Assembly: GCA_043801965.1 (NCBI GenBank)
Contig: JAZDLN010000033.1
Span: 5,113 to 69,112 of the forward strand
DNA length: 64,000 bases
Source: Candidatus Falkowbacteria bacterium
GTDB taxonomy: Bacteria > Patescibacteriota > Patescibacteriia > Patescibacteriales > UBA12075
Reading direction: 5' to 3'
In this document: positions 1,331 to 34,290 of the stretch, piece by piece
How the letters are laid out: each line of letters begins with the position of its first letter
How positions within the stretch are numbered: the first letter of the stretch is position 1
Position numbers and translations under genes: made by a program
The notes under the pieces: generated by a model
Told to the model about the DNA's origin: nothing
Databases searched by the model: none
What the model saw: only the letters and a program-made list of their open reading frames with translations

Positions 1331-3073
1331 ATGATCAATCAAGACAAGCTATTAAAAGATCTCCAGGACAGGGGAATGATAAAATACGACCAGCTGAACC
1401 TGATACTTGAAGAGGCCAAAGAAAGCAAAAGGGGGGTGGAGGAAATTTTGGAAAAAATAGTGAATATCGAGGACTTGACCCAGGCTAAGTCCAGGTTTTA
1501 TAATCTGGCCTATCAGAACATTACCGAATTGATCATCAATAACAAGGTTTTGAACATCATTCCAAGCGAAGTCGCGCAAAATTATAAGATCATCTGCTTC
1601 GGAGAGAAAGACAAGAAGATAAAAGTCGGCATAATCGACCCGGATAATTTTAAAGCCATCGAGGCGGTTGATTTTTTGGCGAAAGAGAACGATCTTCAGG
1701 CGGAATTTTTTTTGATATCGAAAAACAGCTTCGAGGCGGCTTTTAAACAATATAAATCACTGACCAAAGAACTGGACAGCGCCCTAAAGACCCGCGCTAA
1801 AGCCGAAGAGGACCAGCTGATAGCCATAGAAGAAAGAAACAAGCCGCAAACAGGGGAAGAGGTAACGAAGAGCGCGCCGGTGGCGAAGATAGTATCAGTG
1901 ATCATCCGGCACGCGGTTGAGGGCAAATCATCGGATATCCATATCGAGCCTTTAAGAAACGAAACCCGGGTGCGTTACCGCATAGACGGCGTCCTGCACA
2001 CCTCCCTCGTCCTTCCCAAGGCTATCCATAACGCTTTGGTGGCCCGCATCAAGGTATTGTCTAATTTAAAATTAGACGAGACCAGGATCCCCCAGGACGG
2101 CCGTATTCGGATGATAGTCAATGAAAGGGAAATAGATTTCCGCGTTTCCATACTCCCCTTGGTGGGATTCGAAAAAGTGGTGATGAGGATATTGGATACG
2201 ACCAAGGGCGCTCCCAAGCTCGAGGGTCTCGGCTTTCAGGGGCGGCAGCTTCAGCTTCTCCAGAAAAACATAAAAAAAACCGAAGGCATACTTCTGATCA
2301 CCGGCCCTACCGGGAGCGGAAAATCGACCACCTTGTTTTCGCTTTTGGATATGCTTAACAAAGAAGGCATTAATATCTCAACCCTGGAAGATCCGGTGGA
2401 ATATAAGATGGAAGGCGTGAACCAGTCGCAGATCGCTCCCCAGCTGGGATATAATTTCGCGAGCGGACTACGGTCTTTTTTGCGCCAGGATCCGGATATT
2501 ATCATGGTGGGCGAGATCCGCGACGAAGAAACCGCCGAATTGTCGGTGCATGCCGCCCTAACCGGCCATTACGTCCTTTCCACCCTGCACACGGTTGATT
2601 GCTCCGGAGTGATAACCCGCCTCGTCGATATGGGTATCGAACCGTTCCTGATCGGCTCTACTTTAAATACGGTCATAGCCCAAAGGCTCGCCCGGAAGAT
2701 CTGCGAGTTTTGCCGGGAGGAAACGAAAATACCGCCGGATTATCTCGCAACCATTAAAACCGAATTTACCCAGATCGGAGACGAGTATCTCAAAGGGCTC
2801 ATAAAGGATTTCGATATAAATAAACTTAAATTCTTCAAAGGGAAGGGGTGCCCGCGTTGCGCCAATACGGGCTATTCCGGGCGCGTCGCTATCGCCGAGG
2901 TGCTTGACGTCAATAAGCAGATAAAAGACATGATAATAAGCGGTAAAAAATATATCGACGTGGATACTATCAGGCAAACGCAGCCGTTCGTAACGGTCAG
3001 ACAGGATGGTTTTTTAAAGGTCGTACAGGGAAAGACAACCATTGAAGAAGTGCTCCGGGTAATGTCTGATTAG
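1331..3073 (+). CDS. pilB: type IV pilus assembly (extension) ATPase PilB/GspE family
   Basis: 580 aa. Walker A GPTGSGKST, Asp box EDPVEY, Walker B DPDIIMVGEIRD, His box GHYVLSTLHT, tetracysteine CEFC...CPRC, and a T2SSE_N-like N-terminus. Confidence 0.95.
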   Translation: MINQDKLLKDLQDRGMIKYDQLNLILEEAKESKRGVEEILEKIVNIEDLTQAKSRFYNLAYQNITELIINNKVLNIIPSEVAQNYKIICFGEKDKKIKVGIIDPDNFKAIEAVDFLAKENDLQAEFFLISKNSFEAAFKQYKSLTKELDSALKTRAKAEEDQLIAIEERNKPQTGEEVTKSAPVAKIVSVIIRHAVEGKSSDIHIEPLRNETRVRYRIDGVLHTSLVLPKAIHNALVARIKVLSNLKLDETRIPQDGRIRMIVNEREIDFRVSILPLVGFEKVVMRILDTTKGAPKLEGLGFQGRQLQLLQKNIKKTEGILLITGPTGSGKSTTLFSLLDMLNKEGINISTLEDPVEYKMEGVNQSQIAPQLGYNFASGLRSFLRQDPDIIMVGEIRDEETAELSVHAALTGHYVLSTLHTVDCSGVITRLVDMGIEPFLIGSTLNTVIAQRLARKICEFCREETKIPPDYLATIKTEFTQIGDEYLKGLIKDFDINKLKFFKGKGCPRCANTGYSGRVAIAEVLDVNKQIKDMIISGKKYIDVDTIRQTQPFVTVRQDGFLKVVQGKTTIEEVLRVMSD

Positions 3074-3148
3074 GTTTTAGCTTATAGCTTTTAGCTTTTA
3101 GGGGGCTATGTTTCCTAAAACCTAAAAGCTAACACCTAAAAGCTATAC
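3074..3148. repeat. intergenic hairpin with tandem-heptamer arms (agctttt / aaaagct)
   Basis: Left arm is ttttagcttatagcttttagcttttagggg (3075-3104). Right arm is cctaaaacctaaaagctaacacctaaaagctata (3114-3147), an imperfect reverse complement. It fills the whole pilB to pilT-like spacer. Confidence 0.75.
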
Positions 3149-3150
3149 AC

Positions 3151-9926: not shown

Positions 9927-12272
9927 ATGAAAGCGCGTTTAAATAAAATTTTAGACTTATTCTCCGAAACGCTTATTCTGGGCGTCGTTTTCCTGGTGCC
10001 GATATTTTTTTCGCCGCCTTTTTTCATCACGGCCAATACTTTTGAATTAAACAAGATCGTATTGTTTAAAATCCTGACCCTGTGCCTCCTGGCCGTTACC
10101 GCGCTTAAGGCCGCCACGGACCGAAATTTTCGGGTTTCAGGCAAAAAACGGCTTTTCTCCTTTTCTTGGAATTGGCTGGTTATCGGTGGTTTTTTCCTGG
10201 CTTTGGCCTTAGCCACGGTTTTTTCGATCGACCCGCAAAAAAGTTTTTTCGGTTCTTACGATCGCCAGCAGGGACTCTCCGCGCAGATTTATTATCTGCT
10301 GTTTTTCGTAGCCCTGGTGCTTAACGTTTTTTCTTTTAAACAGATAAAACGGATATTGTCGGCCATAGTCTTATCATCCGCGGTGGTCTGCGGCTACGGC
10401 TTATCCCAGCAATTAGGATATGATTTCATGTCCTGGAGCGAATCCATCGAAGAGACCAACCGGGTAACCTCGACTTTCGGCCAGCCGAATTTTTTGGGAA
10501 TTTTTCTTCTCTTGGCCATGCCGGCAACTGTCCTGGCCGCCGTTTACGCCCGGAAGAGGGTAATCGGTTTTTTGTGCGCGGGAGTTTTGGGCCTGGAGTT
10601 ATTGAATCTGCTTTATATCTATAGCTTAAGTATCTGGTTGAGTTTATTTTCAAGCATGGCCGCGACCGGATTTTTTTATGTTTTCGTTAATCGGAAAAAT
10701 ATCTTTTCCGTTTTGAGGGGCCGTTTTAAGAAAGCGATCTTACCGGCCGCGGTCCTGATACTCTTGGCGGCGGGGGTTTTTTACGGCCTGCATGATTCCT
10801 GGTTTTTAAGCACCAAGATAAAGCAGGTTTTAAGCCTTGAGGGCAGTGCCGGCACCCGGCTGATCTATTGGCGGGCGGCCTGGGACGCTAGTAAGCAAAA
10901 GCCGTTTTTGGGCTTTGGTCCGGAGACGCAGGCAGACGTACTGACCGGTTATTACGATAAGGATTGGGGGATTTACGCCTATGTCAACGTCCGGCCGGAT
11001 CGGGCCCATAATATTATCTTAGACACCCTCTTAACCGGCGGCTGGTTGGGATTGGCCGGATTTTCAGTCCTGCTTTTTTCGTTGTATCGCTTTTTATACC
11101 GGGGCATCCGATCGGGCCGGAACGGATCGTTCTTCTATCTGCTGTTTTTGGCCATTACTTCTTATCTTGTATCGCTTTTTTTGAATTTTTCCTTTGTCAC
11201 CGCCGGCATATATTTTTGGCTGTATTTCAGCTTGATATTCCTGTCCGCAACGAATTTGCCGGAAGCGGAAGAAGTAAGGGAAGAATCGGAAGAAAGGCCG
11301 AGAAATAAGACGGTAGCTATTTTTAAAGCAGCCGTGTCGGCCGGAGTCGTGCTCTTGTGCATATTTATGGTTAACCGCCAGATAAAAGTCGTGGTGGCGG
11401 ATCATTATTATTTCGGTCTGGATATGGCCGCCCGGAATAACGATTATTTTACGGCATTAACGCTATATGATTATATAGACGAGCTGGAAACATCGACTTA
11501 TTTCGGCGAGAAATCCGCCGCTCTCGTAAGCGGCCTGATCATGGGCTCGAAAGAGGCGGGCTTAAGGAGGGGAGGAGATGACGCGATCAGGAAGATATTA
11601 CCGGAAATAAAGTCGGAAAGCTATACCGCCGGTCTTCTTAAGGCGAAATTATCCGCCGGTTTAGCCGCTCCTTACCAGGCGGAATTCTATGAACGGTCAG
11701 AGGCCGAGTACCGACGCGCTATAAACCATAGTCCCCGCACGCCCGGCAATTATACCGAACTGGCCGGTCTTTACCGTATCTGGGGGAAGAACGAGGAAGC
11801 GATCGTGAATTATAATATCGCTTTAAGCCTTTTGCCGGATATCTCCGATCCGCGCCTAGATTATCTGCATCAGGAAGCGATCGGCCGGGAGATATGGCGC
11901 GATCACGGCGGTATGGGCGATATACTTATGGCCGAAGCCGATTACGCCGGTGCTCTCGACCACTATCTTTCGGCCGGTTATTTTTACAGGAAAGAACCCA
12001 TGGTTTATTATAAAATTTTACAGGCTTATTACCGCTTGGGCGATCTGGACAGCGCTTTAACCTACGGCAGGCGCGGCTATAAGGAATATCCGGGGAATTA
12101 CCTTTGGCCGCATACGCTCGGCCAGCTTTATTATGAGACCGGAGATTTTTTAAACGCCCAGCGTTTTACGGAAGAAGCGCGCCGGATGGCGCCCAACGAT
12201 TGGGCGGTTAACGAACTTATCGGGAAAATAAACGGGAAATTGAATGCCAACCGGACAATATCCGACAATTAG
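9927..12272 (+). CDS. O-antigen ligase-like (Wzy_C) polytopic membrane protein with C-terminal TPR repeats; candidate pilin O-oligosaccharyltransferase
   Basis: 781 aa with about 12 TM helices. It carries the Wzy_C-type motif PDRAHNIILDTLLTGGWLGLAGF. The C-terminal ~300 aa are TPR-like (YRRAINHSPRTPGNYTELAGLY..., GDLDSALTYGRRGYKEYPGNY). Confidence 0.7.
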   Translation: MKARLNKILDLFSETLILGVVFLVPIFFSPPFFITANTFELNKIVLFKILTLCLLAVTALKAATDRNFRVSGKKRLFSFSWNWLVIGGFFLALALATVFSIDPQKSFFGSYDRQQGLSAQIYYLLFFVALVLNVFSFKQIKRILSAIVLSSAVVCGYGLSQQLGYDFMSWSESIEETNRVTSTFGQPNFLGIFLLLAMPATVLAAVYARKRVIGFLCAGVLGLELLNLLYIYSLSIWLSLFSSMAATGFFYVFVNRKNIFSVLRGRFKKAILPAAVLILLAAGVFYGLHDSWFLSTKIKQVLSLEGSAGTRLIYWRAAWDASKQKPFLGFGPETQADVLTGYYDKDWGIYAYVNVRPDRAHNIILDTLLTGGWLGLAGFSVLLFSLYRFLYRGIRSGRNGSFFYLLFLAITSYLVSLFLNFSFVTAGIYFWLYFSLIFLSATNLPEAEEVREESEERPRNKTVAIFKAAVSAGVVLLCIFMVNRQIKVVVADHYYFGLDMAARNNDYFTALTLYDYIDELETSTYFGEKSAALVSGLIMGSKEAGLRRGGDDAIRKILPEIKSESYTAGLLKAKLSAGLAAPYQAEFYERSEAEYRRAINHSPRTPGNYTELAGLYRIWGKNEEAIVNYNIALSLLPDISDPRLDYLHQEAIGREIWRDHGGMGDILMAEADYAGALDHYLSAGYFYRKEPMVYYKILQAYYRLGDLDSALTYGRRGYKEYPGNYLWPHTLGQLYYETGDFLNAQRFTEEARRMAPNDWAVNELIGKINGKLNANRTISDN

Positions 12273-14548: not shown

Positions 14549-14615
14549 TAAATCCGCGCAGTAATCCGCGCCTGCCAGCGGGCAGGCAATATCCGCGGAA
14601 GACAATGGATTTCGG
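14549..14615. repeat. modular hairpin: (t)aaatccgcg k-mer arm plus GC core hairpin gcctgccagcgggcaggc plus degenerate complementary arm
   Basis: taaatccgcg lies at 14549-14558 and taatccgcg at 14562-14570. The core 7-bp stem is at 14570-14587. The right side is atatccgcgga...ggatttcgg (to 14615). Confidence 0.65.
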
Positions 14616-17771: not shown

Positions 17772-18620
17772 ATGAATAAATGCGTTGTTTGCGGAGTGCA
17801 AAATAATAATAAAGCGATTTTCCGGGAAGACGGCATCGATATATTGCGCTGCCTGAATTGCGGCCATGTTTATTCTTCTTGCGACGCCCCGGAGGACGGT
17901 GCCGGTTATTTCGGCGCCGATATCGGCCTCCAGGATCATTTCTGGTGGCGCGAAGCGCATGAACGGATGTACCGGGATTTCGGCCGCCGTTTTCTCACGG
18001 GCAGAAGCGGGCGTTTACTCGACGTCGGCTGCGGCCTCGGGTATTTCGTGAAATTCGTTACCGAGCGGCCGGGATGGAAAGCGTATGGTTCCGAAATATC
18101 CGTTCCAGCGGCGGATTTCGCGCGAAAAGAATTGGGACTGGCCAATATAATCGCCGGAGAAGTCCAAAGCGCCGGGTTTGAAAAAAAATCATTCGACATA
18201 ATCACGCTTTGGGACGTGATCGAGCACGTTCCCGATCCCCATCCTCTTCTTAAATTTCTTAATTCGATCCTGAAAGACGACGGCGTTTTATTCATGCATA
18301 CGCCGAACATAAAAATCCAATTGCCGAAAGCCCGGATAAAAAAATGGCTTAGAGGCGAGACGCCGGGAGCGCATTATCTTGAAGCCAAAGATCATGTCAA
18401 TATTTATTCCGCCGGGACACTAAGCGCGATTTTGACCGCGAACGGCTATAAGGATATAAAATTCATCCATCTTCATCCGATCCAGAGTATCTCCGGAAGC
18501 CGGAGCGGTTTTTTAAGGGTCATAAAGAACGGTTGGTTTTACGCGGCGAAGCTGATCGGGTTTTTTACGGGAAATAGGGTTAATATGGATAATTTGTTCG
18601 TGGCGGCAAGAAAGTTTTAG
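17772..18620 (+). CDS. class I SAM methyltransferase with N-terminal zinc ribbon
   Basis: CVVCG...CLNCG, then LLDVGCGLGYF, FDIITLWDVIEHV and DDGVLFMHTP. Confidence 0.75.
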   Translation: MNKCVVCGVQNNNKAIFREDGIDILRCLNCGHVYSSCDAPEDGAGYFGADIGLQDHFWWREAHERMYRDFGRRFLTGRSGRLLDVGCGLGYFVKFVTERPGWKAYGSEISVPAADFARKELGLANIIAGEVQSAGFEKKSFDIITLWDVIEHVPDPHPLLKFLNSILKDDGVLFMHTPNIKIQLPKARIKKWLRGETPGAHYLEAKDHVNIYSAGTLSAILTANGYKDIKFIHLHPIQSISGSRSGFLRVIKNGWFYAAKLIGFFTGNRVNMDNLFVAARKF

Positions 18621-18686
18621 TATCTTGTATTTAGTATTTAGTATTTAGCAGGTCGGCAAAATACTAAATACAAGATACTAAATACT
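18619..18686. repeat. intergenic hairpin with tandem-heptamer arms (tatttag / ctaaata)
   Basis: agtatcttgtatttagtat (18619-18637) is the exact reverse complement of atactaaatacaagatact (18661-18679). The additional tatttag repeats allow register-shifted pairing. Confidence 0.8.
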
Positions 18687-19487: not shown

Positions 19488-19554
19488 AGTATATGGTATT
19501 TAGCGGCCGGTCACTGCTGTTTTGCTAAATACTTAATACTAAATACTTGATACT
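19488..19554. repeat. intergenic hairpin, same tatttag/ctaaata k-mer family
   Basis: gtatttagc (19496-19504) pairs with gctaaatac (19524-19532). The right arm continues as ttaatactaaatacttgatact. The loop is ggccggtcactgctgtttt. Confidence 0.65.
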
Positions 19555-19559
19555 ACTTG

Positions 19560-21353: not shown

Positions 21354-21440
21354 CAGTATTTAGTATCTAGTATTAAGTATTAAGCCTACGATTATCATGC
21401 CTGCGGCCGCTTGATACTTAATACTATATACTATAGTATT
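21354..21440. repeat. intergenic hairpin, tatttag/tattaag k-mer arms
   Basis: agtattaagtat (21369-21380) is the exact reverse complement of atacttaatact (21414-21425). The flanking taagc/gcttg extends the stem. The loop is ctacgattatcatgcctgcggcc. Confidence 0.7.
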
Positions 21441-22697: not shown

Positions 22698-25768
<3,071 letters not shown>

Positions 25769-27728: not shown

Positions 27729-28511
27729 ATGTGGTTCCATAAAAAGAAGGATCAAAAAAAAGAAAACCGCAAATTTATCGCGGCCGTGGTTATTTTAATC
27801 CTGCTGATGGCGGTCTTATACGCCGCGCTGGTTTTAAACGGCCGGCAAGCGGCGCCAAGTAGTCAGTTGCCCGATGTTCCGGCGATTCCGGATGATGCCG
27901 CTATTATAACCGAGGCTAACCGGCAGGCGATTAAAGACGCCGAGCGGGCGGAATTCTTTAAAATCAGACCGATTGATTCGACCGATCATATTCAGGGAGA
28001 AGAGGGCGCGCCAGTGGAGATAATCGTTTACAGCGACTTTGAATGCGAATTCTGCGCCAATTTCAGCGATACGCTAAAGAAAGCCGAAGAAGAGTACGGC
28101 GAAAAGCTGGTGGTCGCTTACCGGCATTATCCTTTAAGGCTTAACCCTAATTCGGAAGCGGCCGCTATCGCCTCGGAGTGCGCGGCCGAACAGGGGAAGT
28201 TCTGGGAAATGCACGACAAGCTTTTTATGGATAATAAGAACAACAACATGGGTCCGGATCAATTCAAACAGGACGCGGCCGCGATTCAGCTCGACCGGGT
28301 CAAGTTCAACCAATGCCTTGATATGGAAAAATACAAGGATAAGATCTGGGCGCAATTCGCCGAAGGCAAGGATGCCGGAGTCGCGGGCACACCCAATAGT
28401 TTCATAAACGGAGAACCTGTTCCTGGCGACGTGCCGTTCGAAGATTTTACGGATAGCGCCGGGGTCGGAAGAAAGGGAATGAAATCGATAATCGAAAGAC
28501 ATTTGCTTTAG
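27729..28511 (+). CDS. membrane-anchored DsbA-like thiol:disulfide oxidoreductase
   Basis: 260 aa with an N-terminal TM. It has a thioredoxin-fold CxxC (YSDFECEFCANF) and the FINGEPVPG cis-Pro region. Confidence 0.8.
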   Translation: MWFHKKKDQKKENRKFIAAVVILILLMAVLYAALVLNGRQAAPSSQLPDVPAIPDDAAIITEANRQAIKDAERAEFFKIRPIDSTDHIQGEEGAPVEIIVYSDFECEFCANFSDTLKKAEEEYGEKLVVAYRHYPLRLNPNSEAAAIASECAAEQGKFWEMHDKLFMDNKNNNMGPDQFKQDAAAIQLDRVKFNQCLDMEKYKDKIWAQFAEGKDAGVAGTPNSFINGEPVPGDVPFEDFTDSAGVGRKGMKSIIERHLL

Positions 28512-28543
28512 TATAAGGTATCAAGTGTAAAGTATAAAGGGCA

Positions 28544-28619: not shown

Positions 28620-28740
28620 GGAGAGTTCACCTAGCGGCCTATGGTACCTGCTTGGAAAGCAGGCGGGTTAACGCCCACGAGAGTTCGCCGGGCCATCCGA
28701 CCCGGCGCCCAGTCGGATGACTGGGCGAATCCCACTCGTT
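28620..28740 (+). pseudogene. decayed tRNA-Ser(GGA)-like sequence with a ~38-nt GC-rich hairpin in the T-loop
   Basis: The acceptor 5' half (ggagagt), D arm (acc/ggt), anticodon arm (cctgc ttGGAaa gcagg) and long variable arm all fold. After ttcg the T-loop is interrupted by ccgggccatccgacccggcgcccagtcggatgactggg (28688-28725), then cgaat. The 3' acceptor is only partly complementary and no CCA is present. Confidence 0.55.
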
Positions 28741-28745
28741 TGCTT

Positions 28746-29006
28746 ATGCATTATGTTTATATATTACTTTTAAGGGACGAGTTGTTATATAAAGGAAGCA
28801 CGGGCAATCTTAGAAGAAGATTAAAGGAGCATGAATCAGGAAAGGTGGAATCAACAAAGAATAAAAAGCCTATTCAGTTGATTCATTACGAATGTTATAA
28901 ATTAAAAAGTGATGCCAAAAGAAGAGAAAAATATTTAAAAACCACTGAAGGTAGATATTTTTTGAAGCAACAAATAAAAGATTTTTTAAAAACAATTAAC
29001 ATGTAA
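28746..29006 (+). CDS. small GIY-YIG nuclease family protein (YhbQ/Slx1-like mini form)
   Basis: 86 aa. MHYVYILLLRDELLYKGSTGNLRRRLKEHESGK...REKYLK matches GIY-YIG motifs. The track ORF from 28641 merely reads through the tRNA-like sequence. Confidence 0.8.
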   Translation: MHYVYILLLRDELLYKGSTGNLRRRLKEHESGKVESTKNKKPIQLIHYECYKLKSDAKRREKYLKTTEGRYFLKQQIKDFLKTINM

Positions 29007-29018
29007 GCAAAGACTTAC

Positions 29019-29106
29019 GGAAGGGTCGCCTAGTGGCCGATGGCGCGCGCTTGGAAAGCGCGTATACCGCAAGGTATCGAGGGTTCGAATCCCTCTCCTT
29101 CCGCCA
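29019..29106 (+). tRNA. tRNA-Ser (anticodon GGA), CCA encoded
   Basis: Hand-folded. The acceptor is ggaaggg/tccttcc and the D arm gcc/ggc. The anticodon stem is cgcgc/gcgcg with loop ttGGAaa. The long variable arm is ataccgcaaggtat and the T arm gaggg ttcgaat ccctc, with discriminator g plus cca. Confidence 0.9.
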
Positions 29107-32987: not shown

Positions 32988-33014
32988 CAGTTATTCGAAA
33001 AATTTGAATAACTG
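32988..33014 (+). other. perfect 9-bp stem hairpin in a 267-nt spacer
   Basis: cagttattc (32988-32996) pairs with gaataactg (33006-33014). Confidence 0.5.
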
Positions 33015-33081
33015 CTGATGACAGGAAAAACCACCAGAGGCAGATACGCCTCAGGCGGAGATTGTCGATTTATATTGTTTT

Positions 33082-34290
33082 ATGAAACTACTTATCTGTA
33101 CGCAAAAAGTAGATATAAACGATGACGTTCTGGGGTTTTTTCATTCCTGGATTAGAGAATTCGCGAAGCATTATGAAAAAGTGACGGTTATTTGTTTGTA
33201 TAAAGGCGAGTATGATCTGCCGGAAAACGTTAAGGTTTTGAGTTTGGGGAAAGAGAGGAAGAAAAATTTTCAATCCCGTATAGGACCCGTGGTCCCGACG
33301 GGACTTTACGGGTTTTCAATTTTTCCGCCCGAGGCGGATCCGCCTTTGGCGGACAATTTTCAATCAATAATCAATTTTCAATTTTTTAATAAAATTGCCT
33401 ATATTTTAAAATTTTATAAATATATTTTTTCCGAGAAGGGTAATTATGACAAAGTTTTTGTGCATATGAATTCGGAATACGCGGTTTTGGGCGGAGGGTT
33501 GTGGAGATTGTGGAATAAAAAAATCGGTCTTTGGTACGTACATAAGGCGATTCCGTGGCAGCTTCGAATCGCGGAAAAATTCGTGGATGTTATCTTTACG
33601 GCGTCGAAAGAGAGTTGTAATTTAAAATCTAATAAAATCAGGGTGATAGGACATGGTATAGATTTGGAGAAATTCCAAATAACAAACCCCAAATTCCAAA
33701 CCTTGCCTACTGGCAGGCAGGTAAATTCGAAATTTGTTATTGTCTATGTCGGCCGCATTTCAAGAATTAAGAACCAGGAATTATTGATTCGAGCTATAGA
33801 TATTCTTCGCAATGACGATTTGTCAGTGAAACTTATTGGTGGGACGGTTTACGACCAAGATAAAGATTATCTGGATAAGCTGAAAAAATTAGTAAAAGAG
33901 AAAAAATTAGACGATGTGATTGAATTTGTCGGGGCGGTGCCGAATAAGGATATCGGCGGATATTACGGCGAAGCGGATCTGGCGCTTAATTTATGCCCGA
34001 CCGGCGGAGTCGATAAGGCGGTTTTAGAGGCGATGGCCGCGGGCGTGCCGGTAATAGTTTTCAATAAGACTTTCGCGGATGTTTTGGGGGACTATAAAGA
34101 GGAGATGATTTTGCGCGCAGAGAACGCGGAAGAGCTGGCCGGGAAGATTAAAAATATTATGGGGTGGGGAGTGGAGAAGAGAGAAAGCGCAGGCAAGGAT
34201 TTGAGGGGGGTAGTAAAAGAGAACTACGGACTGGAAAGTTTAATCGGGAAAATAAAAAACTTATTGAAAATGATATTGCTTTTGATATAG
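33082..34290 (+). CDS. GT-B glycosyltransferase carrying two in-frame repeat/hairpin insertions
   Basis: 402 aa. The N-terminus MKLLICTQKVDINDDVLGFFHSWIREFAKH and the C-terminus GGVDKAVLEAMAAGVPVIVF are GT-B-like. Low-complexity segments at aa ~61-103 and ~197-219 are encoded by hairpin repeats. Confidence 0.8.
   Translation: MKLLICTQKVDINDDVLGFFHSWIREFAKHYEKVTVICLYKGEYDLPENVKVLSLGKERKKNFQSRIGPVVPTGLYGFSIFPPEADPPLADNFQSIINFQFFNKIAYILKFYKYIFSEKGNYDKVFVHMNSEYAVLGGGLWRLWNKKIGLWYVHKAIPWQLRIAEKFVDVIFTASKESCNLKSNKIRVIGHGIDLEKFQITNPKFQTLPTGRQVNSKFVIVYVGRISRIKNQELLIRAIDILRNDDLSVKLIGGTVYDQDKDYLDKLKKLVKEKKLDDVIEFVGAVPNKDIGGYYGEADLALNLCPTGGVDKAVLEAMAAGVPVIVFNKTFADVLGDYKEEMILRAENAEELAGKIKNIMGWGVEKRESAGKDLRGVVKENYGLESLIGKIKNLLKMILLLI
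33262..33390 (+). repeat. in-frame intragenic repeat element: four direct ttttcaat copies plus three GC-rich mini-hairpins
   Basis: ttttcaat occurs at 33267, 33313, 33357 and 33375. The hairpins are cccgt-g-gtccc-gac-gggac-ttt-acggg (33286-33312), ccgcc/ggcgg (33325-33337) and tccgcc/ggcgga (33339-33353). It encodes ...NFQSRIGPVVPTGLYGFSIFPPEADPPLADNFQSIINFQFF. Boundaries are approximate. Confidence 0.65.
33670..33741 (+). repeat. in-frame intragenic modular hairpin (aaattccaaa x2 arm plus core tgcctactggcaggc plus complementary arm)
   Basis: aaattccaaa occurs at 33670 and 33691. aataacaaa (33678-33686) pairs with tttgttatt (33733-33741). The core resembles gcctgccagcgggcaggc at 14570. It encodes KFQITNPKFQTLPTGRQVNSKFV. 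Confidence 0.65.

Follow-up and report, generated by a model that had tools for sequence, protein, structure and literature searches.

Heptanucleotide arrays with nested GC-rich palindromes as very likely in-frame insertions in a glycosyltransferase gene of a Candidatus Falkowbacteria bacterium

A glycosyltransferase (GT) gene in a 64,000-nt stretch of Candidatus Falkowbacteria DNA (contig JAZDLN010000033.1, positions 5,113 to 69,112; the whole stretch is called the window here, and positions given without a locus name are window positions) contains two repeat-rich segments which we describe with high confidence as in-frame, lineage-specific insertions at the DNA level. These segments have a two-layer anatomy, in which tandem arrays of heptanucleotide units enclose short GC-rich palindromic modules. 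The gene itself (33082..34290, + strand) is an intact open reading frame (ORF) for a GT4/GT-B glycosyltransferase of 402 aa. The origin that we favor, and consider probable, is that heptamer arrays grew by slippage in two indel-tolerant loops and were then invaded by GC palindromes copied in from elsewhere, with selection filtering the outcome. The parts of the two segments are listed below, with hp1, hp2 and hp3 denoting the palindromic modules and L042 a Ca. Parcubacteria contig.

33256..33399, + strand: variable site 1, after LSLGKE; 48 aa; a heptamer array with two hairpin modules.
33265..33274, + strand: array remnant AATTTTCAAT (TTTTCAA units), left of hp1 and in 7-nt register with TTTCAATTTT once hp1 is removed.
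33275..33313, + strand: hp1, a 39-nt GC-rich palindromic module CCCGTATAGGACCCGTGGTCCCGACGGGACTTTACGGGT, ACCCGT-g-GTCCC-gac-GGGAC-ttt-ACGGGT, with a copy in L042.
33314..33323, + strand: array remnant TTTCAATTTT, between hp1 and hp2.
33324..33353, + strand: hp2, a 30-nt double mini-hairpin made of two 15-nt hairpins, TCCGCC-cga-GGCGGA followed by TCCGCC-ttt-GGCGGA, including GGCGGATCCGCC.
33354..33390, + strand: decayed heptamer array CAATTTTCAATCAATAATCAATTTTCAATTTTTT, encoding what is modeled as an N-terminal extension of helix 93-117.
33664..33747, + strand: variable site 2, the inter-domain linker after GHGID; 28 aa.
33670..33700, + strand: decayed heptamer array AAATTCC AAATAAC AAACCCC AAATTCC AAA, the first 20 nt of which are 20/20 identical to site 2 of L042.
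33701..33721, + strand: hp3, an imperfect palindrome of ~21 nt CCTTGCCTACTGGCAGGCAGG, with boundaries less sharp than those of hp1 and hp2.
33722..33741, + strand: array remnant TAAATTCGAAATTTGTTATT, including the arm complementary to AATAACAAA.

An earlier note on this DNA had read the two segments as hairpin elements inserted in frame, and the sequence words on which it relied are all present. At site 1, TTTTCAAT occurs at 33267, 33313, 33357 and 33375; at site 2, AAATTCCAAA is found at 33670 and 33691 and AAATTCGAAA at 33723, together with the core TGCCTACTGGCAGGCA and the complementary arms AATAACAAA and TTTGTTATT. The translations that it gave for both segments are also correct, and so is its double hairpin at 33324-33353, while its first hairpin needs a bulged g and a ttt spacer. 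The repeat units must, however, be redefined, as both Tandem Repeats Finder (TRF) and a re-count give a unit of 7 nt (TTTTCAA and AAATTCC) rather than the 8-10 nt proposed, and the direct repeats are not parts of hairpin elements but remnants of heptamer arrays in which the modules are nested. Across the 64-kb window TTTTCAAT is not enriched (13 copies found, 9.45 expected), yet 4 of the 13 lie inside 116 nt, and a hairpin scan of the same 64 kb returned 33283-33353 as its sole dense cluster.

Alignments were made of 30 protein homologues and then of 84 non-redundant genomic loci, with all of the loci sampled being neighborhoods of this one GT family. The baseline at site 1 is 7 residues (40 of the 84 homologues), and the 48 residues of the window are the longest form found; at site 2 the baseline is 18-22 residues (65 of the 84), compared with 28 in the window. 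The claim that homologues go without the segments is thus correct for roughly half of them. The nearest homologue (66-75% identical) has unrelated sequence at both sites, with an array (GTTATGC)4.7 at site 1, and modules that are carried by some loci are missing from orthologous ones. When the 48-aa peptide of site 1 was searched with HMMER against 1.84 billion representative proteins, no match was obtained, which argues that the segments are not ancestral protein features.

The AlphaFold2 model of the 402-aa protein has a mean predicted local distance difference test (pLDDT) score of 87.3, and values below 50 are confined to residues 62-90 and 203-215, which correspond to nt 33265-33351 and 33688-33726 and are the module-encoded parts. 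Site 1 sits in the loop past strand 3 of the N-domain and site 2 in the inter-domain linker, so the earlier expectation that inserts are tolerated in a surface loop or linker agrees with the model. The GT-B fold and the Glycos_transf_1 C-domain are both present (Pfam, Glycos_transf_1 at 7e-24, PF00534 and PF13692; AlphaFold2; Foldseek, with HepE, MshA and BshA as the best matches). An alternative is that the segments are protein loops that are ancestral or have a function of their own (e.g., as a surface that binds a membrane or a partner), with the repetitiveness of the DNA being secondary, and the modeled helix extension at residues 93-117, encoded by the 3' part of the site-1 array, could be taken in that sense. 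Protein-level conservation is nevertheless absent, even the nearest homologue being unrelated there, the peptides directly translate 7-nt repeats in each of the three frames, and disorder falls on the module-encoded residues; this explanation is close to refuted. The inserts are probably without function for the enzyme. Two further insertion sites were seen in the GT family: a 31-aa G/A/P/R-rich insert past the helix 'AINIL' in protein P0116 (alignment A1, columns 309-339), and a 17-aa insert LPCEMRSNFSERKIISQ ahead of 'YNLPENV' at residues 42-58 of protein P0050.

The array layer was surveyed by running TRF on 1.38 Mb (the window and the 84 loci) along with local shuffles. Period-7 arrays number 148 in this sequence and 6-11 in the shuffles, an approximately 15-fold excess, while the periods 6, 8 and 9 give 31, 43 and 36 arrays, respectively. 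The modal copy number of the period-7 arrays is 4.4-4.8, 104 of them (70%) lie inside open frames of at least 150 codons, and 31 are at the two GT sites. Units vary with the locus, being GTTATGC at site 1 and GAAATTW at site 2 of L001, CTACCGC at site 1 of L004 and AAATCCG at site 1 of L003. The unit TTTTCAA yields the peptide FSIFNFQ and AATTCAA yields KFKIQNS. Since the complement of TTTTCAA contains TGA, whereas TTTTCAA itself is stop-free in 3 of 3 frames, its strand bias is readily explained.

Heptamer arrays are a widespread trait of Patescibacteria DNA, in intergenic sequence as well as within genes. Their growth at the two sites is a property of the GT family, for which replication slippage would be the mechanism. 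In the first step that we propose, a heptanucleotide array, (TTTTCAA)n at site 1 and an (AAATTCC)n array from which site 2 would derive, grows by slippage after being seeded by A/T-rich flanking codons such as K-F (AAATTY). Many site-2 arrays begin at conserved K-F codons (AAATTY), which would fit local seeding followed by slippage and could account for the recurrence of similar units.

Repeat tracts inside a gene of a glycan-synthesis cluster could also be read as a contingency locus. Slippage in repeat tracts switches lipo-oligosaccharide genes of Haemophilus and Neisseria on and off, and the 7-nt tracts could similarly toggle a surface-glycan glycosyltransferase, the hairpins being incidental. 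Many homologues indeed contain perfect arrays of 4-10 copies inside the ORF, with 9.9 units reached in L003, and 7 is not a multiple of 3. The arrays of the window, however, are interrupted, with a longest perfect tract of 2.1 units, and all 85 of 85 homologue loci have a single frame. The 192-aa members of the P0050 cluster were considered as frameshift alleles and rejected, as both contigs switch to Mur-ligase-like sequence after the array and end 60 nt on; the truncation is a contig break or chimera at the array. Phase variation is not supported, and we judge it very improbable for this gene.

Arrays of this type are also found outside the glycosyltransferase. The NAD-dependent DNA ligase LigA (ORF 23208..25307) has in-frame arrays in its HhH domain, (GGATATC)3.9 at 24848-24874, and in its HhH-BRCT linker, (AAAACAG)4.0 at 25043-25070, which means that the phenomenon is not glycosyltransferase-specific. 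Inverted pairs of heptamer arrays occur at gene ends (3070-3150, 18616-18686, 19525-19555, 21355-21435 and 28510-28539); such pairs, e.g., (TTTAGTA)4.7 ... (AAATACT)4, enclose a short GC-rich core to give long AT-rich hairpins, and may be terminators or units resembling miniature inverted-repeat transposable elements (MITEs). The long-read Parcubacteria contig L042 has perfect intergenic arrays, namely (GAAATTA)14.6 at 961-1062, (AACTCAT)12.4 at 2005-2091 and (GAATTAA)11.3 at 11163-11241. In two independent assemblies, L096 and L100 (encoding P0135 and P0141), the GT gene gives way to Mur-ligase-like sequence (ITGTNGKSTT) directly past the site-2 array and the contig stops after another 60 nt, which reflects either a second locus with the same array or an assembler chimera.

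The nesting of the modules is seen when they are removed in silico. Removal of hp1 (33275-33313) joins AATTTTCAAT and TTTCAATTTT in register, and removal of hp2 (33324-33353) leaves TTTTCAATTTTCAATTTTCAAT, with 15/21 lag-7 matches. Values for other loci are as follows.

L066, GT4 paralogue: 30-nt module, lag-7 matches 21/21 after excision.
L023, GT site 2: 21-nt module, 20/21 after excision.
L036, GT site 2: 30-nt module, 19/21 after excision.
L022, GT4 paralogue: 39-nt module, 18/21 after excision.
L025, GT site 1: 21-nt module, 16/21 after excision.
L002, GT site 1: two 33-nt modules one unit apart in (TTTTCAA)n, 14-15/21.

A strict test of the junctions yielded 8 cases, with 4-5 being convincing. 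The modules have lengths of 21, 30, 33 or 39 nt, all multiples of 3, and are GC-rich within AT-rich enclosing arrays. In the second step of the proposed mechanism hp1, hp2 and hp3 would have been inserted precisely into the arrays, having been copied from elsewhere, whether as mobile DNA of a non-autonomous kind or through insertion during templated repair, rather than generated locally.

Copying from elsewhere is indicated by near-identical or covarying copies in other Patescibacteria, which occupy other sites, orientations and genes as well as intergenic DNA. The copy of hp1 in L042 is 41/43 identical (E = 1.6e-13) and sits, inverted, in another array at site 2 instead of site 1, with the GT genes of the window and L042 sharing 66-69% identity at the DNA level and 44% at the protein level. 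In the window hp1 is flanked on both sides by TTTTCAAT, which is the host array; the L042 copy is without matching flanks, so there is no target-site duplication. The hp2 family has members in L007, L036, L032, L039, L053, L052 and L008. Doublets of the hp2 type occupy GT sites in L036, L008, L039 and L052, and are found elsewhere between tRNA genes (L007), in a linker of a VirD4/TrwB-like protein (L057) and in a GT11 gene (L032); single hairpins of this type also occur (e.g., in L008 and L057). Relatives of hp3 are present at site 1 of L025 and, as the reverse complement, of L079, at site 2 of L023, in L105, and twice in L031, where two identical 21-nt palindromes lie in intergenic DNA and in the inter-domain linker of a GT4 paralogue. 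The data set as a whole holds 328 GC mini-hairpins compared with 123-158 in shuffles, and 6 adjacent double hairpins compared with 0; the density of mini-hairpins at the two GT sites is approximately 9 times that of the whole set. The module families are real, but they are low-copy and diverged. The likeness that had been drawn between the site-2 core and an intergenic core at 14570 does not go beyond style.

These copies also bear on a purely local origin, in which slippage arrays would be joined by palindromes arising from serial intra-strand template switching, nothing would be mobile and likeness elsewhere would be convergent. It would be in keeping with array units that differ by lineage (GTTATGC, CTACCGC, AAATCCG, GAAATTW), with the low copy number of the modules, and with the interleaved, overlapping stems of hp1 and of a module in a tRNA gene (described below), such as serial template switches leave. 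Convergence cannot, however, give 41/43 identity over a complex 43-mer (E = 1.6e-13) in genes that are 66-69% identical, the local template is AT-rich, unlike the modules, which are GC-rich, and the identical 21-nt palindromes of L031 are at two unrelated loci. We consider an entirely local origin unlikely.

It is also important to consider whether the hairpins are selected nucleic-acid structures, serving in mRNA stability, in translation pausing at domain boundaries, or as nuclease or binding-protein sites. The stems of the hp2 family are paired in 99.1% of cells and are kept through compensatory changes (6 of 12 pairs changed on both sides; 0 of 500 shuffles match), hp1 is 95% conserved between distant lineages, and several GT4 paralogues again have modules in their inter-domain linker. 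The RNA fold of 33256-33399 reaches −46.6 kcal/mol (z = −3.97), with 0 of 200 shuffles as good. About half of the homologues are nevertheless without any insert, so that the structure is dispensable, one and the same site has different module types in different lineages and in either orientation, and no Rfam family matches. A selected structure is quite improbable in our judgment. Beyond Rfam at a permissive threshold, which like E. coli genomes gave no meaningful match to the modules, phage and plasmid collections were searched for them without a match, and since all of these searches came back empty the modules are not fragments of universal RNAs or of mobile DNA known there.

The last of these searches, that of phages and plasmids, also counts against modules that move, and it is one of several results which do so. 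The excision of hp3, whose boundaries are weak, restores its array only moderately, and the RNA fold of the site-2 segment is not significant (z = −1.5). The sole other copy of hp1 that was found lies in the same gene family and would fit exchange between GT genes equally, the set used for hp2 covariation was gathered in part through hairpin searches and is biased towards pairing, and sampling of GT-family neighborhoods inflates the apparent hot-spot effect. The earlier note had called for a search for other copies of the repeat units, and although related modules do occur in other genes and intergenic DNA, the 64-kb window (~6% of a ~1-Mb genome) has no second copy of hp1, hp2 or hp3. The hp1 pattern CCGNGGTCCCGACGGGACNNNNCGGG has no genuine match in JGI metagenome contigs, the concatenated module translations in all open frames found no match in a peptide search, and a Pfam scan of 23 window ORFs gave no transposase or REP-associated tyrosine transposase (RAYT; REP, repetitive extragenic palindrome).

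Weighing these results together, we regard it as very likely that the segments are in-frame DNA insertions, probably recent ones, and for the modules we lean somewhat towards a dedicated mechanism of mobilization, the alternatives being templated repair as a rare event or an exchange among GT genes. Selection would act as a filter in which the copies that persist are multiples of 3, stop-free and located in disordered surface segments, and such a filter would account for both the strand bias of TTTTCAA and the two hot spots.

Some candidates and neighbors of the module families were noted along the way. The 8 metagenome matches to CCGNGGTCCCGACGGGACNNNNCGGG were rejected as chance, being in contigs of 64-74% GC and in unrelated coding contexts. 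The hairpin TTTCCGCCGGAGGCGGA in an asparagine synthase gene of L057 was not counted, as comparison with the AsnB of the window gives no clear insertion. A scan of viral sequences for hp2 doublets gave two matches, in non-Patescibacteria contigs of 53-55% GC, one of them beside a group II intron reverse transcriptase; this doublet, TCCGCCagaGGCGGATCCGCCcaaGGCGGA, is at 391-418 of L095 (a viral contig of 53% GC), just 3' of the reverse-transcriptase ORF. Site 1 of L048 (10181-10224) holds a 44-nt near-perfect palindrome, CTGGGATCGAATCCCAGT...ACTGGGATTCGATCCCAG, whose arms resemble a tRNA T-arm, and a 15-nt relative of it is found at 3696-3710 of L039.

A second system in the window offers a candidate for the trans-acting factor. 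At 28620-28740 there is a copy of tRNA-Ser(GGA) with a 40-nt module (28688-28727) interrupting its T-loop (GGTTCG^AATCC); an 85-aa GIY-YIG ORF (~28746-29003) lies 3' of this copy, and the intact tRNA-Ser (29019-29106) comes next. The hairpins at 28688-28727 had been grouped with those of the GT gene as hairpins in a decayed tRNA; they form a different, highly conserved module, which belongs to a tRNA-Ser/GIY-YIG element. Every GIY-YIG homologue locus that was read has the same order of split tRNA-Ser, GIY-YIG gene and intact tRNA-Ser.

Element loci: window 28620-29106; L009 900-1348; L053 7700-8233; L101-L110; L111; L112; L114; L115.

The loci L101-L110 represent a Jorgensenbacteria protein that is indexed in 48 blocks of the collection, from which 24 contigs were read, and L111 has two tandem copies of the element. 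The intact tRNA-Ser of the element is GGA or GCT, and the T-loop module is a double hairpin of 36-40 nt with no Rfam family match. Its hairpin 2 (CGCCCAGT-CGGATG-ACTGGGCG) is identical in five lineages, its hairpin 1 covaries (3 of 5 pairs changed on both sides), and the two loops are mutually complementary. Junctions of rearranged element copies hold GC palindromes, of the hp2 type in L053 and of the hp3 type in L105, the latter being an insertion polymorphism relative to L101.

Structure-specific nucleases are known among GIY-YIG enzymes, and the GIY-YIG protein is therefore a candidate for a factor that acts on the modules in trans. The modules might then be solo ends or repair scars of an undescribed class of homing element driven by the 85-aa nuclease. 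The full element would split the T-loop of tRNA-Ser, start with a double hairpin and carry a replacement 5' part of the tRNA, and the nuclease or its breaks would seed hairpin modules into slippage-prone heptamer arrays throughout the genome, ORFs included. The T-loop module of the window has no sequence in common with hp1, hp2 or hp3, and we offer the link between element and modules tentatively, as a rather unlikely possibility.

Among described systems, the nearest analogue appears to be the cyanobacterial combination of short tandemly repeated repetitive (STRR) heptamers with small dispersed repeats (SDRs). SDRs, which Elhai and colleagues reportedly described in 2008 as being 21-27 nt long, capable of nesting and associated with heptamer repeats, are highly repeated within a genome. 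Like the Patescibacteria modules they form hairpins, are tens of nt long, insert precisely into a target that is itself a short repeat, are found at some but not all related loci, and occur against a background rich in tandem heptanucleotide repeats; for example, SDR5 inserts precisely between nucleotides 3 and 4 of HIP1 (PMC4390886). The modules differ in having a Patescibacteria host, in reaching 39 nt, in being apparently low-copy and often in frame in ORFs, and probably also, in the case of SDR4-6, in sequence. SDRs have been reported only in Nostocaceae (PMC5861425), and heptamer repeats are recorded in Calothrix and Nostoc (PMC4692102). Over-representation of heptameric simple sequence repeats (SSRs) in many bacteria, tentatively ascribed to polymerase slippage, is mentioned in a passage of the latter paper that cites earlier work (PMC4692102, citing Mrazek 2007). 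Our arrays resemble these STRR-like SSRs in their tandem 7-nt units and in the specific over-representation of period 7, but differ in that 70% are inside ORFs, are read in three frames and serve as landing pads for hairpin modules.

The comparison with Rickettsia palindromic elements (RPEs), which the earlier note had made, is only partly apt. RPEs are palindromic elements of ~100-150 bp, multi-copy within one genome and inserted in frame in ORFs, and to our knowledge they are restricted to Rickettsia. The modules are similarly palindromic and in frame, adding surface peptide while the fold is kept, and they have copies elsewhere, a likeness drawn from the description of RPEs. In size (39, 30 and ~21 nt, within an overall range of 21-39 nt) and copy number (single in 64 kb) they fall short of RPEs, and they are nested in arrays; they are not elements of the RPE type. 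As a pair of short GC-rich palindromes in inverted arrangement, hp2 also resembles a REP doublet, with singlets occurring too, as REPs do occur as doublets or singlets (PMC3116915). REPINs are extragenic, with REPs ~71-110 bp apart, have hundreds of copies and are linked to a RAYT gene (PMC3116915), whereas the doublets here are 30 nt long, low-copy and often intragenic (GT4, GT11 and VirD4-like genes). From MITEs the modules differ in that the hp1 copies have no target-site duplication. In the literature searched, no paper links Patescibacteria or the Candidate Phyla Radiation (CPR) with MITEs, REPs or heptanucleotide repeats.

The glycosyltransferase gene is part of a glycan-synthesis cluster with the order GT4, 33082..34290, a small winged helix-turn-helix (wHTH) ORF, GT4, GT2, GT2, PMT_2, AsnB, radical-SAM and methyltransferase. 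The 267-nt spacer 5' of the gene has an AT-rich palindrome CAGTTATTCGAAAAATTTGAATAACTG at 32989-33015 and a weak GC hairpin, GAGGC-agatac-GCCTC, at 33037-33052, followed by AGGCGGAG; relatives of the palindrome and of the hairpin were not found in the loci searched. In the closest relatives, Falkowbacteria RIFOXY genomes (L001 5888-5968 and L006 10001-10081), the GT gene has a duplicate of its first 27 codons ~113 nt upstream, which is in a different frame and 85% identical to the window protein.

For the streamlined, tiny genomes of Patescibacteria, these observations indicate that non-triplet arrays and mini-palindromes steadily enter coding sequence, where they create new disordered loops in enzymes. 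They also carry a practical warning, as heptamer arrays break Patescibacteria assemblies and yield chimeric contigs. Copy-and-paste DNA of very small size thus has a range that extends beyond Rickettsia and Nostocaceae. Should the link to the tRNA-Ser/GIY-YIG element be true, it would be a new way of mobilizing DNA of less than 40 nt, that is, a MITE-like system with a GIY-YIG enzyme in place of a transposase, and a general source of loop insertions in Patescibacteria. The two-layer insertions themselves offer a concrete, datable mechanism for many of the lineage-specific protein insertions in this group.

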